Shown: positions 161 to 62,325 of the stretch, one piece after another
Position numbering within the stretch: the stretch's first letter is position 1
Layout: the number at the start of each line of letters is the position of its first letter
Origin: an uncultured Planctomycetales bacterium
Lineage (GTDB): Bacteria > Planctomycetota > Planctomycetia > Pirellulales > S012-138
Direction of reading: 5' to 3'
NCBI GenBank assembly: GCA_937927735.1
Contig: CALBRZ010000046.1
Location: 1,809-65,808 of the forward strand
DNA length: 64,000 nt
Made by a program: the position numbers and the translations under genes
The notes under the pieces: model-generated
Databases searched by the model: none
The model's input: only the letters and a program-made list of their open reading frames with translations
Told to the model about the DNA's origin: nothing

Positions 161-1870
<1,710 letters not shown>

Positions 1871-1958
1871 GATTCTTCAGATCGCTTAGTGGGGGGCGAT
1901 GGAAATCGCGTGATTTTCAGGGGCAGGGGGGTAGGGCCATGGCCGCCCTGGGCCGCCG

Positions 1959-2933: not shown

Positions 2934-2944
2934 GTTTTCGACTC

Positions 2945-4280: not shown

Positions 4281-4353
4281 CGTCGTCAATACTCCTTGTA
4301 CCGTCGTGGCAATCGGCCAATTTCTGTCAAACGACGCGTCGAACGGATCTCGA

Positions 4354-5574: not shown

Positions 5575-5639
5575 CGTCGGGTTAGTAACTTACGGTGTGT
5601 TGAATTGCGGGTTTACCGGCCGGGTGATGCGGTCATGCC

Positions 5640-7046: not shown

Positions 7047-7130
7047 CGTTACGATTCCTTCGGTGCTTTATTTGGGAGTCGCCGGTTACGGCGTCTGTCG
7101 TCGGGTCAGCAGGGCCGGAGCAGGGGAGGA

Positions 7131-8528
<1,398 letters not shown>

Positions 8529-8587
8529 GGGTGGTGGTATCTACGAGGCTCGTTGTGCGAGTGATCTGCGGCTGTGCGGACAAATCC

Positions 8588-11500
8588 TCAAGCGTGGTGC
8601 GAACCGGCCGCGGCGGCTTCGCCGTCGATCAAGGCCGGGTGCGGGTTGCGGATCCGGGCCAAGTACCGCGTCCGCGGCTTGATGTTCAGCTCCTCGAGCA
8701 TGGCGTACGCCCGAGGATTGCGGTGCGCCTGGGCCACCTTCGATTCCGGACGGTTCAGGTCGCCAAACTCGATCGCCTTGGTGGCGCACGCCTGCTGGCA
8801 GGCGGTGACGATTTCTTCCGGCCCCAGCGGCCGACCTTCGCGACGGGCCGCAATCTTGGCGTTCTGGATCCGCTGCACGCAGTAGGTGCACTTCTCCATC
8901 ACGCCCCGCATGCGAACCGTGACTTCGGGGTTGAGCAGCAGCGACGTGAGGTCGTCGTTGGCCTGCTGGAGCCGCGGATCGTGGGCACGGAAGTCGAAGA
9001 AGTTGAACCGCCGCACCTTGTACGGGCAGTTGTTGGCGCAGTACCGCGTGCCGATGCAGCGGTTGTACGCCATGTCGTTGAGGCCTTCGTTGCTGTGCAC
9101 CGTGGCCGCCACCGGGCACACCTGCTCGCAGGGAGCGTTCTCGCAGTGGTGGCAGGTGACCGGCTGCGTGACGACCTGCGGCTCCTCGGTATCGCCGCTG
9201 AAGTAGCGGTCGATGCGGAGCCAGTGCATCTCGCGGCCCATCTCGACCTGTTCCTTGCCCACCACCGGCACGTTGTTTTCAGCCTGGCAGGCGACCATGC
9301 AGGCGTTGCAGCCCAGGCACTTGTTCAGGTCGATCGACATGCCCCAGGCCTGGCCTTCGTACGAGACCTCTTCCCAGAGCGAGAACAGCGGCGGGTGGTG
9401 ATGCTCCTGCGGCGGGAACGTCGCATGGTGCTCGCCGTGGCCATCACCGTGGTGAGCGTCATCGTGCTTGTGCGCGTCGTCGCTCTTGGCGGCCACCGGC
9501 ACCACGTTGGCCTCGTGGGCAATCGTGCCGGCCGGCACGGCCGCGGCGGCCTTCAAAGCCGGATGGTTCGGGTAATGCTCTTCGAGGAACCGGCGGTAAT
9601 CGTCGAAGGTGCCTTCGCGGACCAGTTGGCCGATGCGATGGCCAATGGCTTCCAGGCCAACCGTGTCGATTGCCTGGTGGTCCTGCGTGGTGGCCAGCGT
9701 CGCGGCACGCGTGCGAACCGCGGTGGCCTTGGCCTCGGGAGCAATGTACCAGGTGCTCCGGGTACGAAGCGGGGCGACGTTCACGCCCACCGTTTCGATC
9801 CCCAGCGCTTCGCTGCCGCCCACGTGACCGGCGGCGGTGCGGCCGTAACCGAGCACTAAACCGACGGTACCGCGAGCCATGCCCGGCAGCAGGTAGACCG
9901 GCACATCGACGCTGGCGCCGTTGAGCTCCACCCGCAGGTTCTGCCCCTGCGAAACTTTCAGCGCCGCGGCGGTCGCCGGACCAACCAGGGCAGCGTTCCC
10001 CCAGGTGACCTTGGTGAGCCGATCAGGCAATTCCTGGAGCCAGCTGAGATTGGCATAGCGGCCGTCGTACACGCTGTTGCTGCCCAGGAACACCACCTCG
10101 ACCTTGTCGGTGGCGATGTCGGCCTTGCGCCAGGCAGCACCGGAGTCGTCGGCCGGCACTTCCAATGAGGCCAGCGCTTCCAGCTTGACGTCGGCCGCGG
10201 CCGGACGGCTGTCTTCGGCAAAGCCGTCGTGCACGAGCCTCCGCCAGGCGCGATCCGAGGCGTTGCCTTGCCGGGCAGCCCAGGTGCGGCGAACCAGGTC
10301 GCGACCGCTGGTGCGCTCGTCGCCGATCAGCAGGGCCAGCAGCTCAATCTGCGACTTGCCGTCGAACAGCGGGTCGATCAGCGGCTGGGCCACCGAGTAG
10401 ATGCCCTGCTCGCTGAGGGCGTCGCCCCAGCTTTCCAGACCGTGAGCCTGCGGCAGATACCACTGGCATGCCTGGGCGGTTTCGTTCTCGTACAGGCCCA
10501 GGTAGGCCGAGCCTTTGATGTTGAGCACCACCTGGCCGAAGTTCAGTTCGGCGGGGGCGTCGTAGACCGGGTTGCCATCGAGCACCAGCAGCGTGCTGAT
10601 GTCGCCATTGCCGGCGGCGTCGGCCAGCTCTTCGATGGTGCCGGCCTGCGAGTCGACGTCGGCTTCCCAAAATTCGATCGTCTTGCCGATGTTGCCCAGG
10701 CGGCTGTTGATGCGGTGCGCCCGAGCGTGCACGTGCGCCGGCTGCTGCGGCCCCACGACCACCAGGCTCTCGCCGGCGTGCTCGACCAGGTCGGCGGCCA
10801 GCACATCGAGGAACCGTTCGCGGCGCGCCACCACGTCGCTGGCTTCCGGCATTGGTCCAGAGGGCAGGGCGGGCTTCTTGCCGTCCTTGGTTTCCTCAAG
10901 CAGCTTCTGCACGCGGGCTTCGAGCGAAGCCAGGAAGCTGTCGATCTGGCTGCTGGCCAGCGGCAAACGGTGATCGGCGGCCACGCCGGTGGTGCTGTAG
11001 TTGGCTTCCACGGCGTACAGCCGGTTCATGCGGCCGTTGTCGACATCGCGGCCAGCCACGTAGTCGCGGGCATACGTCACCGAACCGGGATGATTGCCCA
11101 GCGGGTCGGCGTCGAAGCAGGCAATCACCGCGGCCTTGTCCAAGAGCAGCCGCGGACGATACGGTTTGCCGAAGGCCTCGATGATGCCCAGTTGTTCGTT
11201 GCGGTTGTCGAGCGAGGTGTGCTCGAACCAGCGGGCTTGCGGGAACCGCTTCTCAAACTGCTTGCGCAACTGCAGCCGCGTGGGAGAGCTGGACGGCGTG
11301 GCGAGCACGGCCACACCGGCCCCGTCGTTGCCGGCCTGCTTGGCGAACCAGTCGATGAACTGTTCCCAAGTGCGGGTGTAGTCGGTGCCCACCTCGCGCT
11401 GCCGCACCCGGCTTCCGCGATCCGGGTCGTACAGCTCAAGCACGGCGGCTTGCGAGAAGGCGTCGGTACCGCCACGGCTGTCCGGATGGTTGGGGTTACC

Positions 11501-11845
11501 CTCCACCTTCAGCGGGCGGCCGTCCAGGCTCGTCACCAGCAGCGGCCGGGCACCGCCTGCCACTTCCAGCGTGGTGGCAAAACGCTGCGGGTTGCCCGGC
11601 GTGCGGTTGGCGGGCCGCTTGGCAAGCGGCACGATCGTTTCTTTTTCCCAGCGGCAGCCGGCCAGGGTGCCCAGCGCCAGCGACGCCCCCATCACCTGGA
11701 GCCACCGACGGCGCGAGATGCCGGTCGGAAACTCCGAGGCAGCCTGGGGGAATTCGCGGGCCAGAAACTCGCGGAACTGCGGCGTGTCGGCGAGTTCTTC
11801 GAGGCTCCGCCAGTAGTTGTTGTGTGGTCCGGTCGAAGGCTTCAT
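8588..11845 (-). CDS. actB: Alternative Complex III subunit ActB (molybdopterin-oxidoreductase-like domain fused to 4Fe-4S ferredoxin domain)
   Basis: Start reset to ATG 11845, which overlaps the actA TGA as ATGA. Tat-type signal SRRRWLQVMGASLALG. Cys clusters CLGCNACMVAC, CHHCENAPCEQVCP and CIGTRYCANNCP. The track start at 12067 would overlap actA by 225 nt. Confidence 0.9.
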   Translation of the reverse strand: MKPSTGPHNNYWRSLEELADTPQFREFLAREFPQAASEFPTGISRRRWLQVMGASLALGTLAGCRWEKETIVPLAKRPANRTPGNPQRFATTLEVAGGARPLLVTSLDGRPLKVEGNPNHPDSRGGTDAFSQAAVLELYDPDRGSRVRQREVGTDYTRTWEQFIDWFAKQAGNDGAGVAVLATPSSSPTRLQLRKQFEKRFPQARWFEHTSLDNRNEQLGIIEAFGKPYRPRLLLDKAAVIACFDADPLGNHPGSVTYARDYVAGRDVDNGRMNRLYAVEANYSTTGVAADHRLPLASSQIDSFLASLEARVQKLLEETKDGKKPALPSGPMPEASDVVARRERFLDVLAADLVEHAGESLVVVGPQQPAHVHARAHRINSRLGNIGKTIEFWEADVDSQAGTIEELADAAGNGDISTLLVLDGNPVYDAPAELNFGQVVLNIKGSAYLGLYENETAQACQWYLPQAHGLESWGDALSEQGIYSVAQPLIDPLFDGKSQIELLALLIGDERTSGRDLVRRTWAARQGNASDRAWRRLVHDGFAEDSRPAAADVKLEALASLEVPADDSGAAWRKADIATDKVEVVFLGSNSVYDGRYANLSWLQELPDRLTKVTWGNAALVGPATAAALKVSQGQNLRVELNGASVDVPVYLLPGMARGTVGLVLGYGRTAAGHVGGSEALGIETVGVNVAPLRTRSTWYIAPEAKATAVRTRAATLATTQDHQAIDTVGLEAIGHRIGQLVREGTFDDYRRFLEEHYPNHPALKAAAAVPAGTIAHEANVVPVAAKSDDAHKHDDAHHGDGHGEHHATFPPQEHHHPPLFSLWEEVSYEGQAWGMSIDLNKCLGCNACMVACQAENNVPVVGKEQVEMGREMHWLRIDRYFSGDTEEPQVVTQPVTCHHCENAPCEQVCPVAATVHSNEGLNDMAYNRCIGTRYCANNCPYKVRRFNFFDFRAHDPRLQQANDDLTSLLLNPEVTVRMRGVMEKCTYCVQRIQNAKIAARREGRPLGPEEIVTACQQACATKAIEFGDLNRPESKVAQAHRNPRAYAMLEELNIKPRTRYLARIRNPHPALIDGEAAAAGSHHA

Positions 11846-12642
11846 CGATGGCACGTCGAGCAGTTGGTCGATGTCTTGATGTTCAGTTGCTGATGCACTT
11901 CGCGGCCGACTTCCACCGGGTCGCGCTCGGGCACCCAATCCATTTGCGTGATGGCGTCCAGCGGCCGCAGATGCGGCGTGGGATCGCGGTGGCAGTCCAG
12001 GCACCAGGCCATCGACAACGGCTGAGCCTGGTACACCTGGTCCATGCGATCGACACGGCCGTGGCACGACACGCAGCCCACCCCGCGGTTGACGTGCGCG
12101 CTGTGATCGAAGTAAGCGAAGTCCGGCAAGTCATGGACACGAACCCAGGGGATCGACTTGCCGGTGGCCAGGCTCTCGCGCACCAGAGCCAGCCGAGGGC
12201 TGTCGGCCAGCACCGACGCGTACGGCACCGTGCCGTCGCCCTGCGTACCGCTGTGGCAGTTGCCGCAGGTTTGCGTGGGCGGAATGGCCGCGTGTGCCGA
12301 CCGCTCCACCGTGTTGTGGCAGTAGCGACAGTCGAGCCTGAGCTTGCCCGCGTGGGTCTTGTGGCTGAACGGCAACGGCTGCTTGGGCGAATAGCCCACG
12401 TTGACCGTCCGCGGCTCGGTGGCGATGTAGGCCACCGCCACGCCGTACAGCACCGTGACACCAACGACGCCGGCCAGGACCGCTACCACGCGGTTGGTCC
12501 AGCGGGGGAACTCCCAATTGGCGCCGGAGCCATCGTGACCATCACCGCTGCCGTGCAGCGCTGCGCCATTGCCGTCCGTTTCCGGCTGGGCAGGCACCGG
12601 CTGGCCGTGCGCAGGAGAAGAAGAATCGTGAGACGCAGCCAT
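11842..12642 (-). CDS. actA: Alternative Complex III subunit ActA (pentaheme cytochrome c)
   Basis: Five CxxCH motifs (CRYCH, CGNCH, CVSCH, CLDCH, CSTCH) and one N-terminal TM helix. First gene of the cluster. Confidence 0.9.
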   Translation of the reverse strand: MAASHDSSSPAHGQPVPAQPETDGNGAALHGSGDGHDGSGANWEFPRWTNRVVAVLAGVVGVTVLYGVAVAYIATEPRTVNVGYSPKQPLPFSHKTHAGKLRLDCRYCHNTVERSAHAAIPPTQTCGNCHSGTQGDGTVPYASVLADSPRLALVRESLATGKSIPWVRVHDLPDFAYFDHSAHVNRGVGCVSCHGRVDRMDQVYQAQPLSMAWCLDCHRDPTPHLRPLDAITQMDWVPERDPVEVGREVHQQLNIKTSTNCSTCHR

Positions 12643-13756
12643 TGGAAAATTGTCGAGCGAGTTCGTTCGGGTCCAGGCTTGTCAGGCAAGAGCCAAAACG
12701 ACTGCGGCTGGCGGGGGATTCCGAAGAGGCAGGCCGCCCGGCGGCACGCAGCAGCTTGGCTTATGGGTTTCGTCTGATTTCCGTCGGGGTGCTGAACGCT
12801 AACGTCGCACTGCGGCCGACTTCTGCCCCGACGCCAGCGCGCACTTTGAGCGCGAACCGCCACAGTGGGCGTTTTTCATTTCAATCGCGTGCAGAGCAGA
12901 AACGCTGGGCGGGCGAAGCGGGGTGTGACCGCGGGTTGGGGCGGCCTCCGTGTTTTTTCCGGGGTACTCTGCTGGTCCCGGTACCATCGGCGGCCGCTCA
13001 GTTACCTGTCGGTGAAATGATAGTCACAATCCAAGCTGTGTTTTAGGTGGTAAATCGTCGCACTCGATCGGGGGGGTATACCCCAGACAATAAACACAAC
13101 CCTTTCGTCAAAAAACACTTAAATTGTGTCCAATCCCGCAAGATTTAGCGCCGGGCGCGGCGCTATGGGCCACCAATCCAGGGCGAGCAATCCGCCAAAA
13201 CCGCCACAATCATCCGCCTCCGAGAACATTTCGCCATTCGCCCCAGCCAACCTATTCAACCACCCCCACTTGACGATCTCCAGGCCGTCCGCTGCCCGGC
13301 GCAGCTCCCAATGGCTACGGTTCAGGCGTTCCTGTACCTGGCGTCGAATCGGGCCGCGGCCCCCCGTCATGTGCCGCGCCACCGCAAACGCAACCCCATC
13401 AGGCACATGGCCCTAGCCGCCCCCTATGCGATGGTGGCCACGGCTGGTACCTTGGCGGTTTATTCGGTGTTTGCCTCTAGTCCCCTTGCTGCCAAGATTA
13501 CGTGTTCCGTGGACCTTGGCAGTCACCGAGGACACGTGCCCCAGAACCTCACCATCGGCACGCGGTGTTTTCCTCGCTGGGCACGTACATCGTCTTCCCA
13601 ATGGGGCAACCGCAAACCGGGCCCGGCACGTAACCGGCCAGGCCGGCGAGTGGTCAGCGGGGCCACCCTCCCTGGATTTTGTGGCGAATAGGCCGGCGGC
13701 TTGCTGGCTGTCGATATGTTCCGTCCGACGCACCGTGTCGGCGAAGGATCCTCCGC

Positions 13757-16291
13757 ATGAATCAACGTTTCGCGCTCTTCTTGTTGTTGTCGGGTGCGTT
13801 GTTCCTGGCCAATGTCGCCTATCTGGCCATGAACCAGCAGAACCGGCCCCAAGCCGAACAGGCCGACGCCCAGCGGCCCCGGCAACAGCAAGCCAAGCAG
13901 CCGCCCGCCGAACTGGAAATCGCTCCGTTCTTCGATCCTCGGCAGGAACTCACCGAAGCGCCCGAGCGGTGGCTCACGCTGGGCTCGGCCGATCCCAGCA
14001 CCGGCTACCGCCTGCTGCTGACGTTTACCAGCCGCGGGGCTTCGCTCTATCGGGCGGAATCGAACCTGCCGCGGTACCTCGACCTGGAAGCCCGACAAAA
14101 TGAGAAAGGCTACCTGGGCGAGCTCGCCTTGCGCGTGGCTCCCGGTGGCAATGGCGTCGAAGTCCGCGTGGTCGGCCCCGGCACGGCTGCCCAGCAGGCC
14201 GGCCTGCAAGTGGGCGACGTCATCACCGGCATCACCGGTCCTGATCAGCAATTGGTGCCTATCAAGACGCCGGCCGAGTACAGCCGGGCACTCGCGAAGT
14301 TCGAGGTCAAAGATCAGATCACGCTGCACGTTCAGCGGCCCCAGGAAGGCGGCACGACCGAGCTGACGCTCAAGGCCACCTTGGTGCCGGTGCAGCTCAG
14401 CATCCTCGATCCCGATCAACCGTACGCGGCCTACAATCCGCACTCGATGCTGCTCACCCTGCAGCGGTTCGACGATCAAACCATTCCCGCCGTGGTGGCC
14501 GATCTGTCGCCCATCGGGCTGGAAGCCACCACAAGCGATGAGGCCGGCGTACTGGTCGCCAACGTGATGCCCAATTCGCCGGCTTCCCGGGCGGGCTTGC
14601 GGCCGGGCGATTTAATCACGGCCGTCGATAACACCGAGATCGAAACCGTTACCGACCTGGTGCAGAAGCTGCACGAGACGCCATCGGCGATGCGGGTGCC
14701 GCTCACGTATCGCCGTAACGATCTGGTCACGCTGACTACGCTGGAAATGCCGGCTGAGATCGCGGCTGGCCCCGCCGGCCCCGCGATCGAGCTGCGGGAC
14801 GCCAACTGGACGGTGCACCACGTCACCGAGTCGACCGTGGAGTTTCGCCGCGAGTTGATCGGCCGGGGCGTCACGGCCGTCAAACGCTACACGCTGGGCA
14901 AGGTGGCTGACCGCAACGAGGCCCCAGCCTACACGGTCAACCTGGAGTTTGAGTTCATCAACCAGTCGGATCGGCCGCACACCGTCGCCTATCAACTCGA
15001 TGGCCCCCGCGGGCTGCCGATCGAAGGCTGGTGGTACTCCAACAAGATCGGCCGCCAATGGGGCGCCGTGGGCGTCCGCGACGTGGCGTTCTACGTGCAA
15101 GACAACTCACCGCAGATGGTGAGCGCTTACAGCCTTGCCCAGGGTAACCCTACGCCGATCCAACCGGCCGAACCGCTCTGGTACGTGGGCGTCGATGGGC
15201 ATTACTTCGCCTCGGCGCTGCTGCCCACCTCGCAGTCGGCGCTGCTGCCCGCCACCATGCTTCCGCTGCGGGTAGGCCCCGTCCCGGCCAACTCCAAAGA
15301 GCACAAGCTGGTCAACACGTCGTTTCGGCTGATTGGCAAGCCGGTTGAACTGCCGCCGGGGCAACAACTGGGCGACGAGTGGCGGCCCGGTCCCACGGCG
15401 CAAAGCCTGCGGCTGTTCATCGGCCCCAAGGCTCCGGCCCTGCTGGCGCAAGAAGGCGACAACCTTTCCGAGCTGGTCTACTACGGCTGGTTTGGCTGGG
15501 TTGCCCGACCGATGCTCGCCATCCTGCGGATCTTCTACGGGATCGTGGGCAACTACGGCATCGCGATCATCCTGCTGACGGTGCTGGTGCGGGCGGCCAT
15601 GTTCCCGCTGAGCCGCAAGCAGGCCCTCAGCGCCCAGAAAATGCAGGAGCTGCAGCCGGAGCTGCGCCGCATCAACGAGAAGTACAAGAAGAACTATGAA
15701 GCCCGCACCAAGGCCACGCAGGAACTGTTCCGCAAGCACAACTACAACCCGTTCGGCGGCTGCTTGCTGTTGTTCATTCAGTTGCCGATCTTCGTGGGCT
15801 TATATCGCGGGCTGATGGTGAATGTGGAACTGCGTCAGGCTCCGCTGATTCCGGGCATTTCGTGGTGCTCCAACCTGGCCGCTCCCGACATGCTGTTCCG
15901 CTGGGACGGTTTCATGCCCGCCTTCATTGCGAGCGAAACCGGCTGGCTGGGGCCGTACTTCAACATCCTGCCGATCATCACGATCAGCCTGTTCATCGTG
16001 CATCAGAAGCTGTTCATGCCGCCTCCGGCGGACGAGCAGCAAGCCATGCAGCAGAGCATGATGAAGTACATGATGATCGTCTTCGGCCTGTTGTTCTTCT
16101 GCGTGCCGAGCGGACTGTGCATCTACTTCATCGCGTCCAGCCTGTGGGGCATCGCCGAGCGCAAGCTGTTGCCCAAGACGCAGCATGCCACAGCCGCCAT
16201 GCCGGCCGCCACCGAGCGCGCCGCCAAGGGCGGCAATCCCAATGGCTCGCCTCCGGGCGGCAGCCGCAAGACGCAGCGGGGCGGTAAGTAA
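13757..16291 (+). CDS. yidC: membrane protein insertase YidC with extended periplasmic region containing two PDZ-like domains
   Basis: ATG 13757 gives MNQRFALFLLLSGALFLANVAYL. C-terminal YidC/Oxa1 core (AIILLTVLVRAAMFPLSRKQ, NPFGGCLLLFIQLPIFVGLY). PDZ-like segments lie at about 14108..14383 and 14510..14749. Confidence 0.9.
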   Translation: MNQRFALFLLLSGALFLANVAYLAMNQQNRPQAEQADAQRPRQQQAKQPPAELEIAPFFDPRQELTEAPERWLTLGSADPSTGYRLLLTFTSRGASLYRAESNLPRYLDLEARQNEKGYLGELALRVAPGGNGVEVRVVGPGTAAQQAGLQVGDVITGITGPDQQLVPIKTPAEYSRALAKFEVKDQITLHVQRPQEGGTTELTLKATLVPVQLSILDPDQPYAAYNPHSMLLTLQRFDDQTIPAVVADLSPIGLEATTSDEAGVLVANVMPNSPASRAGLRPGDLITAVDNTEIETVTDLVQKLHETPSAMRVPLTYRRNDLVTLTTLEMPAEIAAGPAGPAIELRDANWTVHHVTESTVEFRRELIGRGVTAVKRYTLGKVADRNEAPAYTVNLEFEFINQSDRPHTVAYQLDGPRGLPIEGWWYSNKIGRQWGAVGVRDVAFYVQDNSPQMVSAYSLAQGNPTPIQPAEPLWYVGVDGHYFASALLPTSQSALLPATMLPLRVGPVPANSKEHKLVNTSFRLIGKPVELPPGQQLGDEWRPGPTAQSLRLFIGPKAPALLAQEGDNLSELVYYGWFGWVARPMLAILRIFYGIVGNYGIAIILLTVLVRAAMFPLSRKQALSAQKMQELQPELRRINEKYKKNYEARTKATQELFRKHNYNPFGGCLLLFIQLPIFVGLYRGLMVNVELRQAPLIPGISWCSNLAAPDMLFRWDGFMPAFIASETGWLGPYFNILPIITISLFIVHQKLFMPPPADEQQAMQQSMMKYMMIVFGLLFFCVPSGLCIYFIASSLWGIAERKLLPKTQHATAAMPAATERAAKGGNPNGSPPGGSRKTQRGGK

Positions 16292-28425: not shown

Positions 28426-28669
28426 GGAGCACCCGCCAAAAAATCGTATGATAGGTCGCCCTAGCTTAGCAGAAAACGAACCACGCCGGTCCGCCGGCGT
28501 AGCGTATGCGTAGATGAAATCTTATGGGAGCGGTGCCGGTGCTGCCGCAGCAGGCATGCCCGGCAAACGTGCCCCCTACAGCGGCATGGCCGGCGCGCCG
28601 GCAGGCCGCATACATTGAAGCGCTTTCACGGCAACAAACTTTCCTGGAAACAGCATTGGAGAAAATGCG

Positions 28670-44082: not shown

Positions 44083-44537
44083 CTCGTTCCTCGTTGCTCA
44101 TCGCGCTGGGGGCGACTGGTGGTTCGATGGCCGCTCGCTGGCTGCCACCGATCACCGCAACCACCATTGGCAGTTGGATCCGGCTGGAGGGACAGGGCCA
44201 TTGCCACCGCCTGGCCGATGGATGGCCACGGTAGCTTCCCTGCCGCTGATGGAGCCCCCCTCCGTACTGGCCGACTGTTCTCGCCGTAGCCTCGCGTCGA
44301 GCAACGTTCGCCATCAGCGCCGCTGGATTCCATTTTGCTGCATGCGCGGCCCGCCGTAAATGACCCCGGGCTGCTCCGCTGGAGTCTTGCCACCGGCATC
44401 TGGCCCACTTAGCCTACACCGTAACTTTAGGTCGATTTCACCACCGCCGGCATCGGGAGGCGGCCGGTTGCCGCCAACGGTCACAACCGCCAGCCGCGCG
44501 GCAAGCTCGTATTCTCACCAGCAGAGGACAAACCACC

Positions 44538-53972: not shown

Positions 53973-55106
53973 TTACGTCAACCGAGGATGGGGGCCCGCG
54001 TCCTTCAGTTCGGCTACCATCTGCTGGGCCAGGTTGTGATAGTCCTCCAGGACCTGGATGCCCAGGCGATAAGTTAAGAGATACCCCAGCGATCCGGCAA
54101 CCAGTTGCCCCACGATCGGGAACCACTTGGCGACGGTCTTACCGGCTTCGCGCTTGGCGAACTGCCGCATGACGCCTTCCACGGCGATTGGCGTCCCGTA
54201 CTTGGCCGCCAGCGCCGCCGCCCGCCCGGCGATGGCCTTGGTCTTGAGCGAGGCCAGGTCGACCGACGGCGGTTGGTGCAGATGGTACAGATCCTGGATC
54301 TTGTGGATCATGGCCAGCAGGATGCCCAGGTCGACCGAGACATCCAGCCCCGGGATCGGGTTCATGCCGTTGGCCGCGGCCGCCAGCGCATGCCAGTGCA
54401 CCATGTGGCGACCAACACGCAGCTTTCGCTCCAGCCCCTCGGGCGTCCAGGCGGCCAAGGCGGCTTCGACACGTTCGCGTTTCATGCCTTCCAGGCAGTC
54501 GCAAACGTCTTCCAGCAGCCGCGGCAGATCGTACCGGGCAGGGTACCGCGAAGAAACCAGGTACAGCTTCTTAAGCCCATCGTCGCCGAGATAAATTCGC
54601 AGGTTGTCTTCGATCTTGGCGCGGACTTCGACTTCGGTGAGGCCGTGATCGAGCTGCCCGTCGAGCACCGCCAGATCGAACTTGGTGCGGACGATGAAGT
54701 ACGGCACCTTTAACTCGTGGATGATCTGCTCCAGCAGCGCGGCGTCATCCTCAAACCAGCGGTCGGTTACGACCAGGATGAGCGCGTCGTACGTGTCCAG
54801 CCGCATCGTGCCGGCGTAGTCCTTGGCCGGGAACGTGGGCGTGCCGCAGCCCGGCAAGTCGACCAGGACCAGCCCGTTGTATTCGAACTCCTCAGGCTCC
54901 ATCGTCGTCTCGACCACGCCCACCTGGGCCAGCTTCTCGCCGACCATGGCGTTGATCAACGACGATTTTCCGGTGCCGCTGCGGCCGATGATGCCCACCC
55001 GTACCCGCGTCTGTTCGAAGGCCAACTGCTGCTGCGCGGCCTCCTTGATGTACGCGTCCAACGACTTGGGCTGGGGTACGTTGCGCGAGGGGAGCGAATC
55101 AATCAT
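53973..55106 (-). CDS. P-loop GTPase with C-terminal DUF697-like helical/membrane-associated region
   Basis: G1 GRSGTGKSS, G3 DLPGCG, G4 RTKFD. The C-terminal region (NPIPGLDVSVDLGILLAMIHKI...WFPIVGQLVAGSLGYLLTYRLG) resembles DUF697. Confidence 0.8.
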   Translation of the reverse strand: MIDSLPSRNVPQPKSLDAYIKEAAQQQLAFEQTRVRVGIIGRSGTGKSSLINAMVGEKLAQVGVVETTMEPEEFEYNGLVLVDLPGCGTPTFPAKDYAGTMRLDTYDALILVVTDRWFEDDAALLEQIIHELKVPYFIVRTKFDLAVLDGQLDHGLTEVEVRAKIEDNLRIYLGDDGLKKLYLVSSRYPARYDLPRLLEDVCDCLEGMKRERVEAALAAWTPEGLERKLRVGRHMVHWHALAAAANGMNPIPGLDVSVDLGILLAMIHKIQDLYHLHQPPSVDLASLKTKAIAGRAAALAAKYGTPIAVEGVMRQFAKREAGKTVAKWFPIVGQLVAGSLGYLLTYRLGIQVLEDYHNLAQQMVAELKDAGPHPRLT

Positions 55107-55192
55107 GGGCGGCTCACCAGTTTATGATGGACGCGGTGCGGCGTACGCTAGCTACACCTCGGCAGTTATTGAGAGGCGACAGAAAATACCAA

Positions 55193-55245
55193 GGGATTTC
55201 CCTATAGGGATCTCCCCATAGGGAATCCCCTCAAAGGGATTTCCC
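55193..55245. repeat. four tandem GGGA-N(1-2)-TCCC palindromic units with 14-15 bp period
   Basis: The units are GGGATTTCCC (55193), GGGATCTCCC (55207), GGGAATCCCC (55221) and GGGATTTCCC (55236). The junction CCCTATAGGG is itself a perfect 10-bp palindrome. They lie 87-140 nt upstream of the GTPase start. Confidence 0.85.
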
Positions 55246-55339
55246 TAATGCATTATAGGAGCCGCGGTGAGCTGGGCAGCGAAACTGCGCCGGCCAACGA
55301 CAACACTAGTGGGTACGTCCCCCCTTCCTACGGCGGCAC

Positions 55340-56275
55340 CTAGAACCTGTGCGGCCGGCCCGCGGCACATAGCTCGCGCCAGAAATCCAGGGCCGTCGGC
55401 GTGCGATGCCATACGCGGCGGCGCAATGCCCGGGCAATCGGCTGTGCGTAAGGCGAAGGCAGCGACTCGGCAAACATCCGCGGCCGCCCCGCGATGATCT
55501 CCTCGCGAGTGAAGTTCAAATCGGTGGGTGACAGCAGCCGCAGCAGCAACAAGCCCGCGTGGTAAATGTCGACGCGGCGATCGAGCACCCCCAACTGGGG
55601 ATCGAGGAACTCGGGCGGCAACATCCACTGGGCAAACACGGTGTCGTAGGCGACCTCGAACTCGGGCTTGCTGATGCCCAGGTCGCCTAGCTTGAACGTC
55701 CAGCCGCGCATGCCGGGTGTGCTGCCATCCTGTCGCGGCGACAAGTACACGTTGCCGGGGTGCAGGTCTTTATGGACGTAGCCGGCCCCGTGCAGGTAAT
55801 CGAGGGCCTGGAGCACGTCGCTGGCCACAAACGGCAGCCATCGTTCGCGGTCGATCCCCTCCCAGCGAAGAAATTCCTGGAGCGAATGCGGGCAGCGTTC
55901 CAACACCAGGTAGAACGTGTCGCCATATTCGAAGGCGTCGTACACGTAGGTGATGTTGGGGTGCCGAAATTGCGTGAGATTGACGAACTCGCGATACCAG
56001 TCGGCCTGCACCTGCGAGTACGTGCGCTGCTGCGGCACGATCACCTTGGCCACCTGGTAGTTGCCCCACTCGTCGGTGCACTCGTAGACGGCTCCGTAGT
56101 ACCCGCGGCCTATCGGCTGGCCCAGGTAGTAATGACGCCCGCTTGGAGTCACCAGCACGTCGCCCGCCCGCGGGGGCCGGAACGTTTTGCCCGTCTGCGG
56201 GGGCGTGAAATAGGGCGGCTGCTGCATTGAAGGCGCGGGCGTTTTGGAGGGGTAGGGGCGTTTCCCGAAGAACAT
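55340..56275 (-). CDS. serine/threonine protein kinase (compact, kinase domain only)
   Basis: ATG 56275. Gly-rich loop IGRGYYGAVY, VAKV lysine, catalytic loop HKDLHPGNVYL, and DLG (DFG-like) motif GDLGISK. Confidence 0.85.
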   Translation of the reverse strand: MFFGKRPYPSKTPAPSMQQPPYFTPPQTGKTFRPPRAGDVLVTPSGRHYYLGQPIGRGYYGAVYECTDEWGNYQVAKVIVPQQRTYSQVQADWYREFVNLTQFRHPNITYVYDAFEYGDTFYLVLERCPHSLQEFLRWEGIDRERWLPFVASDVLQALDYLHGAGYVHKDLHPGNVYLSPRQDGSTPGMRGWTFKLGDLGISKPEFEVAYDTVFAQWMLPPEFLDPQLGVLDRRVDIYHAGLLLLRLLSPTDLNFTREEIIAGRPRMFAESLPSPYAQPIARALRRRVWHRTPTALDFWRELCAAGRPHRF

Positions 56276-56381
56276 GGCCAGCCAAGCACGAACCTTCTGA
56301 CCCAAACGGGGGACCGTGTGTATTATACGGGGCGTGCCGACCTTAGCAGCCTCTTCGTCCCCCAGCCGAATGCAGCCCCGC

Positions 56382-57131
56382 ATGAGCAAGCAGGTATTAC
56401 TGGTAACGGGTGGTAGCCGCGGGATTGGCGCGGCCACGGCGCTTTTGGCCGCCGAGCAAGGCTACGCCGTGTGCGTGAATTACCGCAGCAATCAGGCCGC
56501 GGCGGAAAACGTGGTGCGGCAGATCCAAGAGCGCGGCGGCGAAGCCGTCGCCGTTCAGGCCGACGTCGCCCACGAAGATGAGGTGCTCCGGCTCTTCGCG
56601 GCCGTGGATACCATGCCCGGCCGGCTCACGGCCCTCGTCAACAATGCCGGCATCCTCGAACGTCAGATGCGCGTCGAGGAGATGGATGCAGACCGCATCA
56701 ATCGCATCCTGACCACCAACGTCACCAGCTACTTTCTCTGTGCCCGCGAGGCCATCAAGCGGATGTCCACCCGGCATGGTGGGCAGGGCGGGGCGATTGT
56801 GAACGTGTCGTCGGTGGCTGCCCGCACCGGGTCGCCCGGCGAGTACGTGGACTACGCGGCTTCCAAGGGGGCGATCGACGCCATGACGATCGGGCTGGCG
56901 CAAGAGGTCGCCCAGGAAGGCATCCGGGTGAACGGCGTGCGGCCGGGTTTCATCTACACCGACATTCACGCCGCCGGTGGCGAGCCCAACCGGGTGGAAC
57001 GTGTCAAGCAGTTCGTGCCGATGCGCCGCGGCGGTACGGCCGACGAAGTAGCCAGGGCAATCCTGTGGCTGTTGTCGGACGAGGCATCGTTCTCAACCGG
57101 TACGTTTATTGACGTGGCAGGCGGTAAATAG
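56382..57131 (+). CDS. short-chain dehydrogenase/reductase (SDR) family oxidoreductase
   Basis: ATG 56382 gives MSKQVLLVTGGSRGIGAATA (TGxxxGxG), NNAG, and YxxxK (YAASKGA). Divergent from the kinase gene. Confidence 0.9.
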   Translation: MSKQVLLVTGGSRGIGAATALLAAEQGYAVCVNYRSNQAAAENVVRQIQERGGEAVAVQADVAHEDEVLRLFAAVDTMPGRLTALVNNAGILERQMRVEEMDADRINRILTTNVTSYFLCAREAIKRMSTRHGGQGGAIVNVSSVAARTGSPGEYVDYAASKGAIDAMTIGLAQEVAQEGIRVNGVRPGFIYTDIHAAGGEPNRVERVKQFVPMRRGGTADEVARAILWLLSDEASFSTGTFIDVAGGK

Positions 57132-57225
57132 CGCCGTCGCGCGACAAGCTCATTAAGCGAGCGGCCAGGCGCTGCGCGCGTGGCATAGGGCATTCCCCAA
57201 TCCACTTCACCACGAACGTGCCGCC

Positions 57226-58092
57226 ATGTACTATGAGCAACTGCTCGACGGTTTCCCCCACGACGAGTTCATCCAGCGGTTCTTCCGACATCAACCACTG
57301 GCCCGGCGCGGCGTGCAAGGCGATTGGCTGCGCTGGGGAAACTGGGACACCGTGGCCGCGATCCTCGCGCACCCCCAAGTCGATGTATTGGCGGCGCGTG
57401 CCGGCGAGTTATGGCCGGGCAACACACCCCTGACATACGAGCTTGCCCGGCAGCTGCACGCCGAGGGTTACACCATCGCCATCCGGCATGCCGAGCGCTG
57501 CTTCCCTCCGCTGGCCGCGGTGGCCGCTGAGTTCGCGCATTGGTTTTGCGGGGCGGTCAACATCCATCTCTATTGCACGCCCGAGCGGCAGTATGGCTTC
57601 GGCTGGCATTATGATGCCGAGGATGTATTCATCATCCAAACGGAGGGTACCAAAAATTACTCGCTCCGTAAGAATACAGTAAATCCGTGGCCCACCGCGG
57701 AAACCCTGCCGCTCGATATGCAGTTCGAGCGCGAAATCTCACCATTGATGAAATGCCAACTGACGGCCGGTGACTGGCTCTATGTTCCGGCCGGCTACTG
57801 GCACGTTGCCCAGGCGGAGGAGGCGGCCATATCGCTGGCCATCGGCATCACGACGCCTACCGCGTTGGACCTGTTGGACCATCTGCGCGGTGAGCTGCTT
57901 CGCGATCTTCGCTGGCGTCAGCGTCTCCCTGTTTTGGGGGCAGGCAACACACAATCGCCCCGGGAATTACGGGACGAACTGGCCGCGCTTGCGCAAAGTC
58001 TGGCCCAAGATCTCACGCTGCGTCTGGCCGATTCGGCCTACCTGGAACGTTTCTTGAACGATGTTCAAAAAAAACTTCACAACCGGGAATAA
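57226..58092 (+). CDS. JmjC/cupin-4 domain protein (ribosomal oxygenase YcfD/RoxA-like)
   Basis: Core NIHLYCTPERQYGFGWHYDAEDVFIIQTEGTKNYSL with an HxD iron motif, and a distal His in YVPAGYWHVA. Confidence 0.8.
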   Translation: MYYEQLLDGFPHDEFIQRFFRHQPLARRGVQGDWLRWGNWDTVAAILAHPQVDVLAARAGELWPGNTPLTYELARQLHAEGYTIAIRHAERCFPPLAAVAAEFAHWFCGAVNIHLYCTPERQYGFGWHYDAEDVFIIQTEGTKNYSLRKNTVNPWPTAETLPLDMQFEREISPLMKCQLTAGDWLYVPAGYWHVAQAEEAAISLAIGITTPTALDLLDHLRGELLRDLRWRQRLPVLGAGNTQSPRELRDELAALAQSLAQDLTLRLADSAYLERFLNDVQKKLHNRE

Positions 58093-58495
58093 CCGTGCCG
58101 CGCGCCACGAACTTAAGTAGTGTTGGTCGCGTAGATTAGGCATGTGTTATCAACGGAATAGATATAACCCGGAAGCCTATCAAGCTGCCGGAACAAACCT
58201 ACCCCCCAAAGATCAGCCTGTACCGGTTATGAGACCTATAGTGCAGGCTCCCCCCTAATGCCGACCCGCCGGCACGTCAAGCGTCACGTTGACGCTCCGC
58301 AACCTGTGACGTAGATAAACTGCGACAGCCAATCGGCTCCTCCCCACCGTCTTGGCGTCCCTAAGCGCCCGGTGCCGGGAAAATCCGATCCCGCCTCGCA
58401 GTGTGCCCGCGGCCCCCGCCTGATCGCCGCGCGGCCTCATCGCTCAAAAGAACGATCCGTCGCACGTCGACGTCGAAGGAACAGGGAACAGTGTG

Positions 58496-59857
58496 ATGAA
58501 GAAGGGGATGTTGTTGCTGGTGGACGACGATCGCCACCTGTGCGAATCCATGGCCGATTGGCTGCGCGAACAAGGCCACCGGGTCGATACGGCCCATAGC
58601 GTGGCTGAGGGCCGGGCGCACATCGACCGTAAGACTTATGATGTGGTGCTGACCGATATCCGCCTGGGCGATGGCGAAGGCTTCGAACTGCTGCAACACT
58701 GCCAACGCCACGCGCCGCACACTCAGGTGGTGTTGATCACCGGGTACGGCACCGTTGAAACCGCCGTGGAAGCCATCCGCGCCGGCGCGTTCGACTTCCT
58801 CACCAAGCCGCTGATCGACGACGAGCTGGAAATGGCCATCCAGCGGGCACTCAGCCAGCGCGAAGTGCTGGCCGAGAACCGCAATCTCAAGGCTCAGCTC
58901 GACCTGCGGTTCGGCCTCGAAAACATCATCGGCCAGGACAGCCGCATGCGACGCGTGTACGACCTGGTCGAAAGCATCGCCGACACCAAAGCCACGGTGC
59001 TGATCACCGGCGAAAGCGGCACCGGCAAGTCGCTGATCGCCCGGGCAATCCACCGCCAGAGCGCTCGCCGCGACAAGCCGTTCATCGAAGTCGCGTGCGG
59101 TGCCCTGCCGGAGAACCTGCTGGAAAGCGAGCTGTTCGGTCACGTGGCCGGCGCGTTCACCGGCGCCACGGTCGACAAGCTCGGCAAGTTCAAGCAGGCC
59201 GACGGCGGCACGATCTTCCTCGACGAGATCGGCACGGCCAGCCCCGGCTTGCAGGTCAAGCTGCTGCGTGTGTTGCAGGAGTTTGAGTTCGAGCAGGTAG
59301 GCGGTACGGAGACGTTCCACGTCGACACCCGCGCCATCCTGGCCACCAACGAGAACCTGGCTGAGCGCGTGGCCGAAGGCAAGTTCCGCCAGGACCTCTA
59401 CTACCGTATCAACGTCATCAATATCGAACTGCCGCCGCTCCGCGAACGGATCTCCGATATTCCGCTGCTGGCGCGGCACTTCCTCCGCAAGGTTTGCGAG
59501 GAGTCGGGCAAGCGCGTCCGCGACTTCAGCGAAGATGCCATTGCGGCGCTCCAGCGGTATCGTTGGCCCGGCAATGTCCGCGAGCTGCAGAACGTGGTCG
59601 AACGGGCCGTGCTGCTGGGCAAGAGCGACTTGATCATGCTCGACGACCTGCCGCCCGCCGTGGCCGCCGATCAGCCCACGGTGCCGGTCGCTGCCGGTCG
59701 CCGGACGCTGCGTGAAGCCCTGGCTGATCCTGAGCGGCGCATCATCCGCGAGGTGCTGGAAGCCAACGGCTGGAACCGCAGCCTCACCGCCGATGCGCTG
59801 GGCATCAACCGCACCACGCTCTACAAGAAGATGAAGCGGCTGGGTCTGGAACCGTAA
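58496..59857 (+). CDS. sigma-54-dependent response regulator (NtrC family: receiver, AAA+, Fis-type HTH)
   Basis: Receiver LLVDDD...[12 protein letters not shown], Walker [15 protein letters not shown] loop ([10 protein letters not shown]), and a C-terminal [19 protein letters not shown]. Confidence 0.92.
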
Positions 59858-59888
59858 ACAACTCGCCCTCCCGCCGAGCGAACCGTAC

Positions 59889-59926
59889 AAGGCGCTAGCC
59901 TGGCCGATGCCATGCTAGCGCCTTTT
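59889..59926 (+). terminator. terminator-like hairpin after the activator gene
   Basis: Perfect 11-bp inverted repeat AAGGCGCTAGC / GCTAGCGCCTT (59889..59899 and 59914..59924) with a 14-nt loop, then TT. The T-tract is short. Confidence 0.5.
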
Positions 59927-60269
59927 CGTATGCGCTCCGTCATCCTGCCGCGGCACGTAGAGAGCTTCAGCGCCAAGCTGTCGCTTCGCATATCGTGTGC
60001 TAGCATCGACCATTCCCTATCCGCTAGCGCGAGGACAGGAATCTCGCACTTATCACGATGCACGCTTGATGAGCTGCGCACCTGAAGCGGCTCGCACAAT
60101 GGCCCCGCAGTTCGCCCGGTTCCTCTCGCCGGTGTTTCCTCGCAAGTTGCCGCAGCGTTCCAACGCTCGAAAGGCGCCGCCGAGCCGCCGCCAGGAGTGC
60201 AGGAGACCGTTATCGCCATGGCGTCCAGCGGGTTACAGGCGGTCGCCGTGTTTCTTCGTGCCATGCTTC

Positions 60270-60285
60270 GGGCACGCCATTTGCC
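60270..60285 (+). promoter_or_regulatory. sigma-54 (-24/-12) promoter candidate
   Basis: gGGCACGccatTTGCc places GGCACG at 60271..60276 and TTGC at 60281..60284 with consensus spacing (TGGCACG-N4-TTGCW). It lies downstream of the sigma-54 activator gene and 327 nt upstream of the YTV gene ATG. Confidence 0.6.
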
Positions 60286-60611
60286 CCGCCAGCGGCAAAG
60301 CTTTCCCAACTTTACAACCGCATCGCACTCGCTGGGGTTATTTCGTTCTCCCCGAGCGTGGCAGGTATTTCGCCCAGTTGTTGCAAGCTCCGAGTTGGCG
60401 AGGATTATCTCACCTTCGGCAACTATTTAGTTTACACATTCATCAGCACTGTTATATTCATCGCAACTTGCACGGCACTGCATCGCTTGGCCTTGCCACA
60501 ATTGACCGCACCAGGTGTGGGGGGCAGAACGCGTCGCGGTTACTGCTAGCACTCAACGGTTCAGCGTGTTCCGTTACTCGAGGAATGGCATTGCGAAAGA
60601 AGGAGTTCAGA

Positions 60612-62174
60612 ATGCACCGCTACGCATGGATACTACTGTTGGCGGCGGCTCCGCTGACCACCGCAGCGCATGCAGGTGGCCATGCCTGCAAAAACGGCTG
60701 TAATCACGGGGGTGGGGCTTATTGCGGGCCCACGTACCAAACCGTTCAAAAGACGATCTACGTACCGCAGTACGTTTGGGAACAGCGCACGGTCCAGGTG
60801 ACCCGCTATCGGCCCGAACAGCGTCAACGCACCGTGACCGTGACCCGCTGCGTGCCGGAGACCAGCGAGGTCACCGAAACCTACACGGTGATGGTTCCCC
60901 AGACCGTGAGCAAAACGGTCAACTACACCGTCGCCAAGCCGGTCGTGCGGCAGGTGGAGCAGCAGTACACGGTGATGGTGCCCCACGTTGAAACCCGGCA
61001 GGGTACCCGCCAGGTCGTACAGCCGGTGACGCGGCAGGTCGAGCAGCAATACACCGTGCTCGTGCCCCACACCGAAACCCGCCAGGGCGTGCGCCACGTG
61101 AGCAAGCCGGTGGTGAAACAGGTTGAGCAGCAATACACGGTCTTGGTGCCCCATACCGAAACGCGCCAGGGCACCCGCATCGTGTGCCAGCCGGTCACCA
61201 AGCAGGTGGAGCAGCAGTACACCGTGCTGGTCCCCCATACGGAAACCCGCCAGGGCACCCGCATCGTGTGCCAGCCGGTCACCAAGCAGGTGGAACAGCA
61301 GTACACCGTGCTCGTGCCCCATACGGAAACCCGCCAGGGAGTCCGCACTCGCTGCGTGCCGGTGCAGACCACCGAGCAGCGCACCGTCTGCGTGAACCAG
61401 GGTTACTGGGTTGAAAACGGCCACTGTGGTTACCGCGGCTGCAATAGCTGCGGCTCGTGCTACGGTGGCGGTTGCCGCAAGTGGGTGAACCAGGTGGTGC
61501 AGAAGGTGATCGATGTCAACGTGTGGCGGTACCAACAGGTGCAAGAGCCTTACCAGTACACCGTCACGGTTTGCAAGCCGGAAACCCGCACCGTCAACGT
61601 GGTCTCGTACCAGCAGGTCCAGCAGCCCTACGAGTACCAGGTCACGGTTTGCAAGCCCGAGACCCGTACGCGTACGGTGAACCTGGTTTCGTACCAACAG
61701 GTGCAGCAGCCGTATGAATACCAGGTGACCGTTTGCAAGCCGGAAACGCGTACCCGCACCGTCAACGTGTGCGAGTACCGGATCGAGGAGCAGCCGTACG
61801 AGTACCAGGTGACCGTCTGCAAGCCGGAAACCCGCACGCGGACCGTCACCGTGTGCGAATACCAGACGGTTACCCAGCCGTACGAGTACCAGGTGACCGT
61901 CTGCAAGCCGGAAACCCGCACCCGCACCGTCAACGTGTGCGAGTACGTCAACGAGCAGCAGCAGCGCGAGGTGCACTACACCGTGATGAAGCCCGAGCAG
62001 CGGACGCGCACTCGCCAAGTGGTGCGGTACCGCCAGGTGGCCGAGGAACAGGTGCAGACCTACACGGTGATGGTACCCTACACCGAAGAGCAGACGGTCA
62101 ATGTTCGCGTCTGCCGCCTGGTACCCAAGACGGTGTGCTACAACGTGCCGGTGGGCGGCGTTTGCTGCAACTAA
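60612..62174 (+). CDS. secreted Cys-rich YTV-repeat protein
   Basis: ATG 60612 with AGGAG 6 nt upstream and signal peptide MHRYAWILLLAAAPLTTAAHA. Two families of 28-aa repeats containing YTV/YQVTV motifs. The upstream 205 codons of the track ORF are low-GC and lack any protein-like pattern. Confidence 0.85.
   Translation: MHRYAWILLLAAAPLTTAAHAGGHACKNGCNHGGGAYCGPTYQTVQKTIYVPQYVWEQRTVQVTRYRPEQRQRTVTVTRCVPETSEVTETYTVMVPQTVSKTVNYTVAKPVVRQVEQQYTVMVPHVETRQGTRQVVQPVTRQVEQQYTVLVPHTETRQGVRHVSKPVVKQVEQQYTVLVPHTETRQGTRIVCQPVTKQVEQQYTVLVPHTETRQGTRIVCQPVTKQVEQQYTVLVPHTETRQGVRTRCVPVQTTEQRTVCVNQGYWVENGHCGYRGCNSCGSCYGGGCRKWVNQVVQKVIDVNVWRYQQVQEPYQYTVTVCKPETRTVNVVSYQQVQQPYEYQVTVCKPETRTRTVNLVSYQQVQQPYEYQVTVCKPETRTRTVNVCEYRIEEQPYEYQVTVCKPETRTRTVTVCEYQTVTQPYEYQVTVCKPETRTRTVNVCEYVNEQQQREVHYTVMKPEQRTRTRQVVRYRQVAEEQVQTYTVMVPYTEEQTVNVRVCRLVPKTVCYNVPVGGVCCN
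60939..61358 (+). repeat. five tandem 84-nt coding repeats (PV[TV][KR]QVEQQYTV[LM]VPH[TV]ETRQG.R....)
   Basis: Units start at 60939, 61023, 61107, 61191 and 61275. Units 3-5 are nearly identical at the DNA level. Confidence 0.9.
61530..61943 (+). repeat. five tandem 78-84-nt coding repeats (Y..V.QPYEYQVTVCKPETRTRTVNV...)
   Basis: Units start at 61530 (78 nt), 61608, 61692, 61776 and 61860. Confidence 0.9.
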
Positions 62175-62278
62175 CCTGACGGCATGTGCCCCGCAACCGC
62201 GGTTCGCCTCGTAAGCCCGCACTTGCCAGGCGACGCGTAGAACCCAGGGCCGTTGCAAGCGGCCGGCAAGAAGTAACT

Positions 62279-62325
62279 CAGCGGGCCGTCCCCAGCCATG
62301 TGCCGGGGGCGGCCCGCTGTTTTTT
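62279..62325 (+). terminator. intrinsic terminator after the YTV-repeat gene
   Basis: 10-bp stem CAGCGGGCCG / CGGCCCGCTG (62279..62288 and 62310..62319), 21-nt loop, then TTTTTT (62320..62325). Confidence 0.65.

Follow-up and report, generated by a model that had tools for sequence, protein, structure and literature searches.

We analyzed a stretch of 64,000 nucleotides (nt) from the genome of an uncultured Planctomycetales bacterium (contig CALBRZ010000046.1), referred to here as the window, in which a regulatory gene is followed on the forward strand by a gene for a protein with YTV repeats. The first gene (58496..59857, + strand) encodes an orphan response regulator of the NtrC family, a class of enhancer-binding proteins that act on sigma-54 promoters, and is called the activator below. 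The second (60612..62174, + strand) encodes a YTV-domain protein of 520 amino acids (aa). Between the two lies a spacer of 754 nt with a sigma-54-like -24/-12 element and, closer to the YTV gene, a sigma-70-type promoter. The original prediction for this DNA had joined the activator, the element and the YTV gene into a self-contained module in which the repeat protein is expressed only through sigma-54. Our comparison with related genomes points to a different arrangement, in which a conserved promoter of the housekeeping type precedes the YTV gene and, in one group of close relatives, a candidate accessory sigma-54 promoter lies upstream of it.

The activator was assigned from its Pfam domains and the length of its homologues. 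It matches Response_reg (2e-26), Sigma54_activat (4.8e-69), AAA_lid_14 and HTH_8 (2.6e-14), and its open reading frame (ORF) offers an alternative in-frame start at GTG 58493. Because the close homologues are all 453 aa long, we place the start at ATG 58496, which gives a product of the same length. The phospho-acceptor aspartate and the conserved lysine of the receiver domain are both intact, as are the Walker A (GESGTGK, residue 172), GAFTGA (residue 219) and DEIG (residue 243) motifs of the AAA+ domain. These matches bear out the predicted architecture of receiver, AAA+ domain with GAFTGA loop and Fis-type helix-turn-helix (HTH), and mark the protein as a genuine enhancer-binding protein of the NtrC class, of the orphan type. 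Our Pfam scans covered about 37 of the larger ORFs in the window, a subset of all its ORFs. They contained no histidine kinase, in line with the earlier remark that none adjoins the activator, and no kinase domain was seen in the flanks of the relatives either. The same scans found no rpoN among these ORFs; the gene is present in Pirellulales, for example as RB6491 of Rhodopirellula baltica (PMC2754498). An exact-sequence look-up returned no identical activator on record. We also rejected an NCBIfam equivalog name for the protein, as every score fell under its equivalog cut-off. Over its full length it scores 470 bits against AtoC (NF008469), 404 against NtrC (TIGR01818) and 399 against ZraR (NF007689), well short of the cut-offs of 714, 559 and 760.

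The product of the second gene matches the Pfam YTV family (PF07639) in five stretches, with 75.9 bits against a cut-off of 21. It contains 10 YTV and 4 YQV motifs and 25 cysteines (4.8%), and its gene holds two arrays of 84-nt (28-aa) repeats at 60950-61339 and 61529-61946. The N-terminus is signal-like (MHRYAWILLLAAAPLTTAAHA), and the C-terminus (...VPVGGVCCN) has no PEP-CTERM tail. A Shine-Dalgarno sequence, AAGGAG (60600..60605, + strand), lies 6 nt before the ATG and is invariant in all aligned relatives, and the earlier call of a secreted YTV-repeat protein starting at ATG 60612 agrees with both the Pfam match and the N-terminus. The YTV orthologues in syntenic loci are 66-87% identical to it, while its identity to the nearest sequences from beyond the syntenic clade does not exceed about 50%; nearly all source-named YTV homologues are planctomycete, and one is labelled Calditrichaeota. 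YTV proteins are reported to be abundant, cysteine-rich components of cell-wall preparations from R. baltica, Gemmata and Tuwongella and to be restricted to Planctomycetia (PMC8567305, PMC12673574), and one YTV protein is essential in Planctopirus limnophila (PMC10632474). The statement that these proteins have no known function was too strong, given their place in the wall and the essential member (PMC8567305, PMC12673574, PMC10632474).

Between the sigma-54-like element and the YTV start codon lies a sigma-70-type extended -10 promoter, TTTACA-16-TGtTATATT (60431..60458, + strand), with 10 of 12 hexamer matches plus the TG and a spacing of 16 nt. It predicts a transcription start near 60465 and a 5' untranslated region (UTR) of about 145 nt, or about 77 nt in two more divergent relatives (group B below). 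In all six lineages in which the two genes adjoin, TTTACA, TG, TATATT and the 16-nt spacing are invariant and the letters of the promoter's internal spacer vary (alignments A1 and A3). The conserved context reads GTTTACA-N16-TGnTATATT followed by CA(G/T)CGCAACTTGC (60430-60471). This block is kept even in the two lineages whose spacers are otherwise unalignable, and it is the sole blastn match between the window spacer and that of L097, one of the two. The predicted promoter is the most deeply conserved feature of the spacer. Many other YTV genes likewise have upstream sigma-70-like motifs that match at 9 or more of 12 positions.

The six syntenic lineages, the window among them, keep the gene order JmjC - activator - YTV. 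We sorted them into group A, consisting of the window, L095, L096/L124/L125 and L122, and group B, consisting of L097 and L123, and scored each spacer with a position weight matrix (PWM) for sigma-54 promoters. The window has a sigma-54-like site GGGCACGCCATTTGCC (12.2 bits) in its 754-nt spacer. L095 (activator 97% and YTV 87% identical to the window) has AGGCACGCCATTTGCC (13.0 bits) in 747 nt; L096/L124/L125 (94%; 81-85%) have AGGCATGCTATTTGCC (14.0 bits) in 776-779 nt; and L122 (91%; 81%) has AGGCATGGCATTTGCC (14.2 bits) in 894 nt. In group B the spacers are shorter, with 425 nt in L097 (85%; 74%) and 364 nt in L123 (83%; 66%), and their best scores of 7.7 and 4.5 bits do not amount to a site. 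Downstream of the YTV gene, L122 (8017-9362) and L123 (5013-6865) carry a second sigma-54 activator with GAF, AAA+ and HTH_8 domains on the opposite strand, and the YTV gene in these two thus stands between two enhancer-binding-protein genes. The same position is occupied by a transporter of the RND (AcrB-type) family in the window, L095, L096, L124 and L125.

Over the whole spacer, group A has 35% invariant columns, and three islands, none of which occurs in group B, stand out from this background. Island 1 is an invariant 14-mer, GCCAAGCTGTCGCT (59972..59985), identical in the window, L095, L124 and L122 inside otherwise diverged or unalignable sequence and absent from L097 and L123. Island 2 (60105..60155; 67% of columns invariant) includes the palindrome CGCAAGTTGC (60141-60150) and sits 115-166 bp upstream of the -24 GG, in group A only; it is a candidate enhancer or operator. 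Enhancers of NtrC-type proteins classically sit at such a distance upstream of the -24 element. Island 3 (60271..60297, + strand; 27 nt, 85% of columns invariant) consists of the sigma-54-like element and a conserved tail, CCCGCCAGCGGCA; in L122 the blastn footprint starts with the GG. The region that follows, 60298-60420, is weakly conserved (35% invariant). A second copy of the island 2 palindrome, CGCAACTTGC (60462..60471), overlaps the predicted sigma-70 start as a candidate operator and forms direct repeat D1 with 60136-60150. It is invariant in the window, L095, L096 and L097 and differs at one or two positions in L123 and L122. The motif CGCAASTTGC occurs twice in the 64-kb window, both times in the YTV spacer and 321 bp apart, and the two copies may form an operator pair or a DNA-looping site.

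Other explanations for the spacer sequence fared poorly. A 725-aa ORF runs from 59997 in frame with the YTV gene, and we regard this extension as non-coding because the relatives carry frame-breaking indels. The upstream module is not a repeat or mobile element, as blastn against the window and all loci gave orthologous matches only. An Rfam search of 59700-60700 found no known RNA element and two sub-threshold small-RNA matches, both over the hairpin that follows the activator gene. The spacer does have the lower GC content that had been noted, with 59% against 64% for the window and a low of 51% at 60300-60500. The inverted repeat CGTGCC-N8-GGCACG that had been remarked upon is also present, though at 60257..60276 and not 60258..60276; we discarded the idea that it acts as a hairpin or an operator, with z near -1 in the window, L095 and L096 and no conservation in L124 and L122.

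The sigma-54-like element itself, GGCACG-N4-TTGC (GGCACGccatTTGC; 60271..60284, + strand), lies exactly where it had been placed, 413 nt past the activator stop. It has an exact core, with GG and GC 10 nt apart in the correct spacing and oriented toward the YTV gene. If functional, it would start transcription near 60296. Its -11 position is 327 nt from the YTV ATG in the window and 318-336 nt in the relatives, and about 160 nt separate the element from the sigma-70 -35. Across group A the 16-mer varies at -26, at -21 (C/T) and at two N4 positions, and the substitutions in the four lineages spare the GG, CA, G and TTGC of the core. Among the varied positions, -21 and the N4 spacer are ones that the sigma-54 consensus tolerates, and we find the pattern compatible with a functional sigma-54 promoter. 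The position of the element also does not look like chance, because genuine Pirellulales DNA seldom contains the pattern: GGCAYG-N4-TTGC matches 10 times in 1.06 Mb, and 3 of these are orthologous copies of the element. The remaining 7 correspond to about 0.0025 expected matches per 754-nt spacer strand, or about 0.03 by a matrix-based count.

Upstream of the activator gene we identified a second deeply conserved, promoter-like block, TTGACG-17 nt-TAGATA (58289..58317, + strand), which lies within cgTTGACGctccGCAACctGTGACGTAGATAAact and is invariant in six of six close relatives (alignment A4). Parts of it reach much further: 44-48 of 63 distant Pirellulales loci have ACGTAGATA and GCGTTGAC 5' of their orthologous activator gene, and the shared block reads GCGTTGAC...GTGACGTAGATA. 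Counting k-mers in these 63 intergenic regions recovered this block alone. It is an unusually deep non-coding footprint across Pirellulales, and it could serve as a promoter, as a binding site for a regulator (GTGACGTAGATA) or as both. At the other end of the gene, after the stop, a terminator-like hairpin, GGCGCUAGC...GCUAGCGCC followed by UUUUCGU, spans 59873..59940 (+ strand). It has a folding free energy of -39 kcal/mol (z = -6.3), and none of 200 shuffles folds equally well. Its sequence is not conserved in the relatives (9% invariant), in which we saw no comparably strong hairpin or conserved terminator 3' of the activator.

Beyond the syntenic clade, 80 Pirellulales genomes encode a full-length orthologous activator with 67-77% identity. 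In all 83 aligned orthologues the G[AS]FTGA motif, the aspartate and the lysine are intact, and the receiver motifs LLVDDD, VLTDIRL and FLTKP are conserved; the recognition helix of the Fis-type HTH is invariant across the 80. The invariant helix and the common promoter-like block support the orthology of these proteins. In 66 of the 80 distant genomes the activator is paired with a divergently transcribed response regulator of the NarL/LuxR type (about 210 aa), which lies about 200-640 nt 5' of the activator on the opposite strand (L001-L080) and is missing from the window. In 29 of the loci with this regulator, xerC is found further upstream. No conserved histidine kinase lies near the distant orthologues (L001-L080). 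The activator is an order-wide, lineage-specific orphan regulator of Pirellulales, and its adjacency to a YTV gene is confined to one clade.

The reading that we tentatively put forward, and whose chances we place just short of even, is that the YTV gene is served by two promoters, a sigma-70 promoter for basal expression and a clade-specific accessory sigma-54 promoter. The activator and YTV genes of this one Pirellulales clade would form two separate, adjoining transcription units. The deeply conserved sigma-70-like sequence at 58289-58317 would be the activator gene's own promoter, and the YTV core promoter at 60431-60458 would give basal expression through a 5' UTR of about 145 nt. The closest relatives alone, group A, would have gained an upstream extension of 330-400 bp with the three conserved islands. 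The third of these, GGCAYG-N4-TTGC, would act as an accessory enhancer-dependent sigma-54 promoter that adds a conditional, phosphorylation-gated boost to the sigma-70 transcription, comparable to the tandem promoters of glnA. Island 2 is a candidate enhancer, and the adjacent activator would be the obvious, unproven driver. In favor of the accessory promoter stand the exact core in the one spacer where a preceding enhancer-binding-protein gene would lead one to expect it, substitutions that suit sigma-54, a conserved island at enhancer distance and, more broadly, the presence of rpoN in Pirellulales and the general connection of sigma-54 with the cell's exterior (PMC3162934). The sequence features, how they are conserved and the missing linkage outside the clade are direct observations; that either promoter fires, and which activator acts, we infer.

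The chief competitor, a substantial possibility that we hold at somewhat worse than even, is that sigma-70 alone drives the YTV gene, that GGCAYG-N4-TTGCC is a look-alike operator for another factor (readable as TTTGCC-N8-GGCAAA) and that the adjacency of the two genes is inherited synteny without regulatory significance. Several observations weigh against an accessory sigma-54 promoter and would fit this competitor. The sigma-70 block is the sole element kept in all six lineages, and the sigma-54-like site is absent by PWM scan from L097 and L123 despite the retained adjacency of activator and YTV gene; of the two features proposed for a check in relatives, the adjacency holds in six lineages and the site in four. 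Island 3 runs 13 nt past the -12, and its palindromic sequence can be read as alternating GGCA/TGCC half-sites, as in an operator. Against the 12-base consensus TGGCAC-N5-TTGCW the element has two mismatches, G at -26 and C at -11. Most genuine sigma-54 sites were found 0-200 nt upstream of the start codon by Francke et al. (2011), whose criterion extends from -50 to 300 nt (PMC3162934), and the element, at 327 nt, exceeds this range by 27 nt. At the level of the window there is nothing remarkable about the motif by itself. Shuffling the whole window by dinucleotides leads one to expect 0.62 exact cores, with at least one in 44% of shuffles. The element's 12.2 bits rank fifth in the window by our PWM, which is our own approximation of a published compilation, and Markov-random windows give 5.5 equal or better sites. 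The claim that this is the window's only good sigma-54 element is correct for the exact 10-base core and does not extend to the PWM ranking. The distant loci are no more favorable. A YTV homologue lies within 6 kb of the activator in none of the 80, the sigma-54-like sites beside these orthologues are not enriched (3 downstream within 800 nt, about background by estimate), and k-mer counts in the 63 orthologous intergenic regions produced no palindromic activator-binding or enhancer motif. Because the recognition helix is invariant in 80 orthologues that never stand beside a YTV gene, the core regulon of the activator would seem to lie elsewhere. Among 24 other YTV upstream regions, 3 sites reach at least 11 bits against 0.9 expected; those in L119 and L121 were discarded as probably lying within signal-peptide coding sequence (CTGGCATTGGGATTGCTG reads LALGLL), which leaves L084 as the one YTV gene in 24 with a genuine upstream site. 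On the other side, transcription by sigma-70 alone requires a coincidence, namely a conserved, exact core in the spacer that follows the window's only enhancer-binding-protein gene, for which about 0.0025-0.03 matches are expected. It also has to accommodate substitutions in four lineages that leave the core untouched, a first palindrome (CGTGCC-N8-GGCACG) that two lineages do not conserve and hairpins that are insignificant as RNA structure. Between an accessory sigma-54 promoter and a look-alike operator, we consider the evidence about evenly balanced.

The remaining readings are less probable. In the most far-reaching one, which we think less likely than not, the clade grafted a sigma-54 promoter and enhancer islands upstream of an ancestral YTV promoter and so recruited the neighboring orphan regulator, with the result that the proteinaceous planctomycete wall would be remodelled on a phosphorylation signal. 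The model that we started from, in which production of the YTV protein depends strictly on phosphorylation of the adjacent activator and on the single promoter at 60271-60284, is very unlikely in our view. It can draw on the intact activator, the exact and correctly oriented core, the presence of the site in four lineages and the adjacency in six. However, expression through sigma-54 only is improbable because a conserved promoter of the housekeeping type, an extended -10 sequence better conserved than the sigma-54-like site, is situated between that site and the ATG of the YTV gene. Similarly, the gene pair is not a self-contained module, because two members of the clade, L097 and L123, have the adjacency and lack the site. 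The activator occurs order-wide with different neighbors and is not YTV-linked in any of the 80 orthologous loci, and none of 8 other independent YTV gene contexts has an enhancer-binding-protein gene next door. Basal expression is also in keeping with the nature of YTV proteins as abundant structural components of the wall, of which one is essential (PMC8567305, PMC10632474). We advise against repeating the claim of a dedicated, self-contained switch in its original form. Least probable of all, by a small margin, is a functional sigma-54-like promoter with another role, such as transcription of a short non-coding RNA at about 60296-60430 or interference with, or occlusion of, the sigma-70 promoter. 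The gap of about 160 nt to the sigma-70 -35, the weak conservation of 60298-60420 and a distance to the ATG that is long for a sigma-54 promoter would suit such a role, but the region has no Rfam family match, no terminator-like site on the + strand within 60296-60430 and no small ORF conserved through the indels of the relatives.

The dual-promoter reading has a well-known precedent. The glnAp1/glnAp2 pair of Escherichia coli is the paradigm of tandem sigma-70 and sigma-54 promoters with an NtrC-type activator. The YTV locus resembles it in combining a housekeeping promoter and an enhancer-dependent -24/-12 promoter (here a candidate) on one gene, in having a response regulator built of receiver, GAFTGA-containing AAA+ and Fis-type HTH domains, and in the conserved DNA about 115-166 bp 5' of the -24 element. 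It differs in the order of the sites, with the sigma-54-like one placed 5' of the sigma-70 promoter at 327 nt from the ATG, in the lack of a definable NtrC-like palindromic enhancer and of a linked cognate kinase, and in its target, a wall protein instead of a metabolic enzyme. A second likeness is to PrsR, the sigma-54-dependent PEP-CTERM-box response regulator (TIGR02915), which has the same three domains and an association with secreted surface proteins. This family is the second-best NCBIfam match of the activator, with 415 bits and under the cut-off of 502.6. Unlike PrsR, the activator has no adjacent PrsK kinase, and the YTV protein has no PEP-CTERM anchor. The Pirellulales orthogroup also departs from the AtoC, ZraR and NtrC equivalogs in being paired with a NarL/LuxR-type regulator (66 of 80), not with a kinase.

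On the side of the target, the protein shares YTV repeats, a high cysteine content, a signal peptide and restriction to Planctomycetia with the wall YTV proteins of Rhodopirellula baltica, Gemmata obscuriglobus and Tuwongella immobilis, as these are characterized in PMC8567305 and PMC12673574. The two papers cite Hieu 2008, Sagulenko 2017 and Mahajan 2020 for those proteins, and the presence in the wall fraction that they report concerns homologues in other species (PMC8567305, PMC12673574). A candidate sigma-54 promoter 5' of an envelope-protein gene would also fit the theme of Francke et al. (PMC3162934), in the main text of which the terms Planctomyc*, Rhodopirellula and Pirellula do not appear.

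Each component of the locus belongs to a known kind, whether the NtrC-family activator, the candidate -24/-12 promoter, the extended -10 promoter of the sigma-70 type or the YTV wall protein. Few constituents of the unusual cell wall of planctomycetes are known, YTV proteins being among them, and to our knowledge no regulation has been described for any YTV gene. If the sigma-54 element works, it would provide a tractable, signal-dependent handle on wall-protein expression, and the sister lineages that lack it would serve as a natural comparison. If the grafted promoter is real, this would be the first described YTV regulatory circuit and a recent promoter gain seen by comparison with sister lineages without it. 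Should the element be inactive, the locus would still offer a housekeeping promoter with a clear footprint in front of a planctomycete wall-protein gene, and it would have brought to light an orphan enhancer-binding protein that is conserved across the order.

Sigma-54-like sequences also turned up at other positions. Two further intergenic sites in the window have comparable PWM scores: TGGTTCGTTTTCTGCT (28468-28483, - strand), 43 nt 5' of ATG 28425, and TGGATTCCATTTTGCT (44324-44339, + strand), about 200 nt 5' of a 3-keto-disaccharide hydrolase gene at 44538. In locus L115 a near-perfect site, TGGCATGAGAATTGCT (2577-2592, - strand; TGGCATG-N4-TTGCT), scores 18.6 bits and precedes a small gene with a signal peptide and a PEP-CTERM-like C-terminus, divergent from a distant YTV homologue; this canonical site means that consensus sigma-54 sites do occur in planctomycete DNA. 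Two tandem exact cores in L008 (8909-8969, - strand), 45 nt apart, lie 5' of an ORF for an insertion sequence-type transposase and are uninformative; they are probably part of the end of a mobile element. A site at 6648 in L097, also uninformative, overlaps what looks like the start codon of an opposite-strand gene.

The wider window contains several other gene groups. Directly 5' of the activator, 53973-58092 encodes an interferon-inducible-GTPase-like (IIGP-like) GTPase, a Ser/Thr protein kinase, a short-chain dehydrogenase and the JmjC/cupin protein, a string of genes that is syntenic in L122, L124 and L125. At 13679-16291 there is a YidC (60KD_IMP) homologue with a PDZ domain ahead of the match to the YidC periplasmic domain, an unusual fusion. 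A respiratory cluster at 161-12642 includes cytochrome c oxidase subunits I and II and SCO1/SenC, together with parts of alternative complex III, namely ActD, an NrfD-like protein, an Fe-S protein and a multihaem cytochrome.

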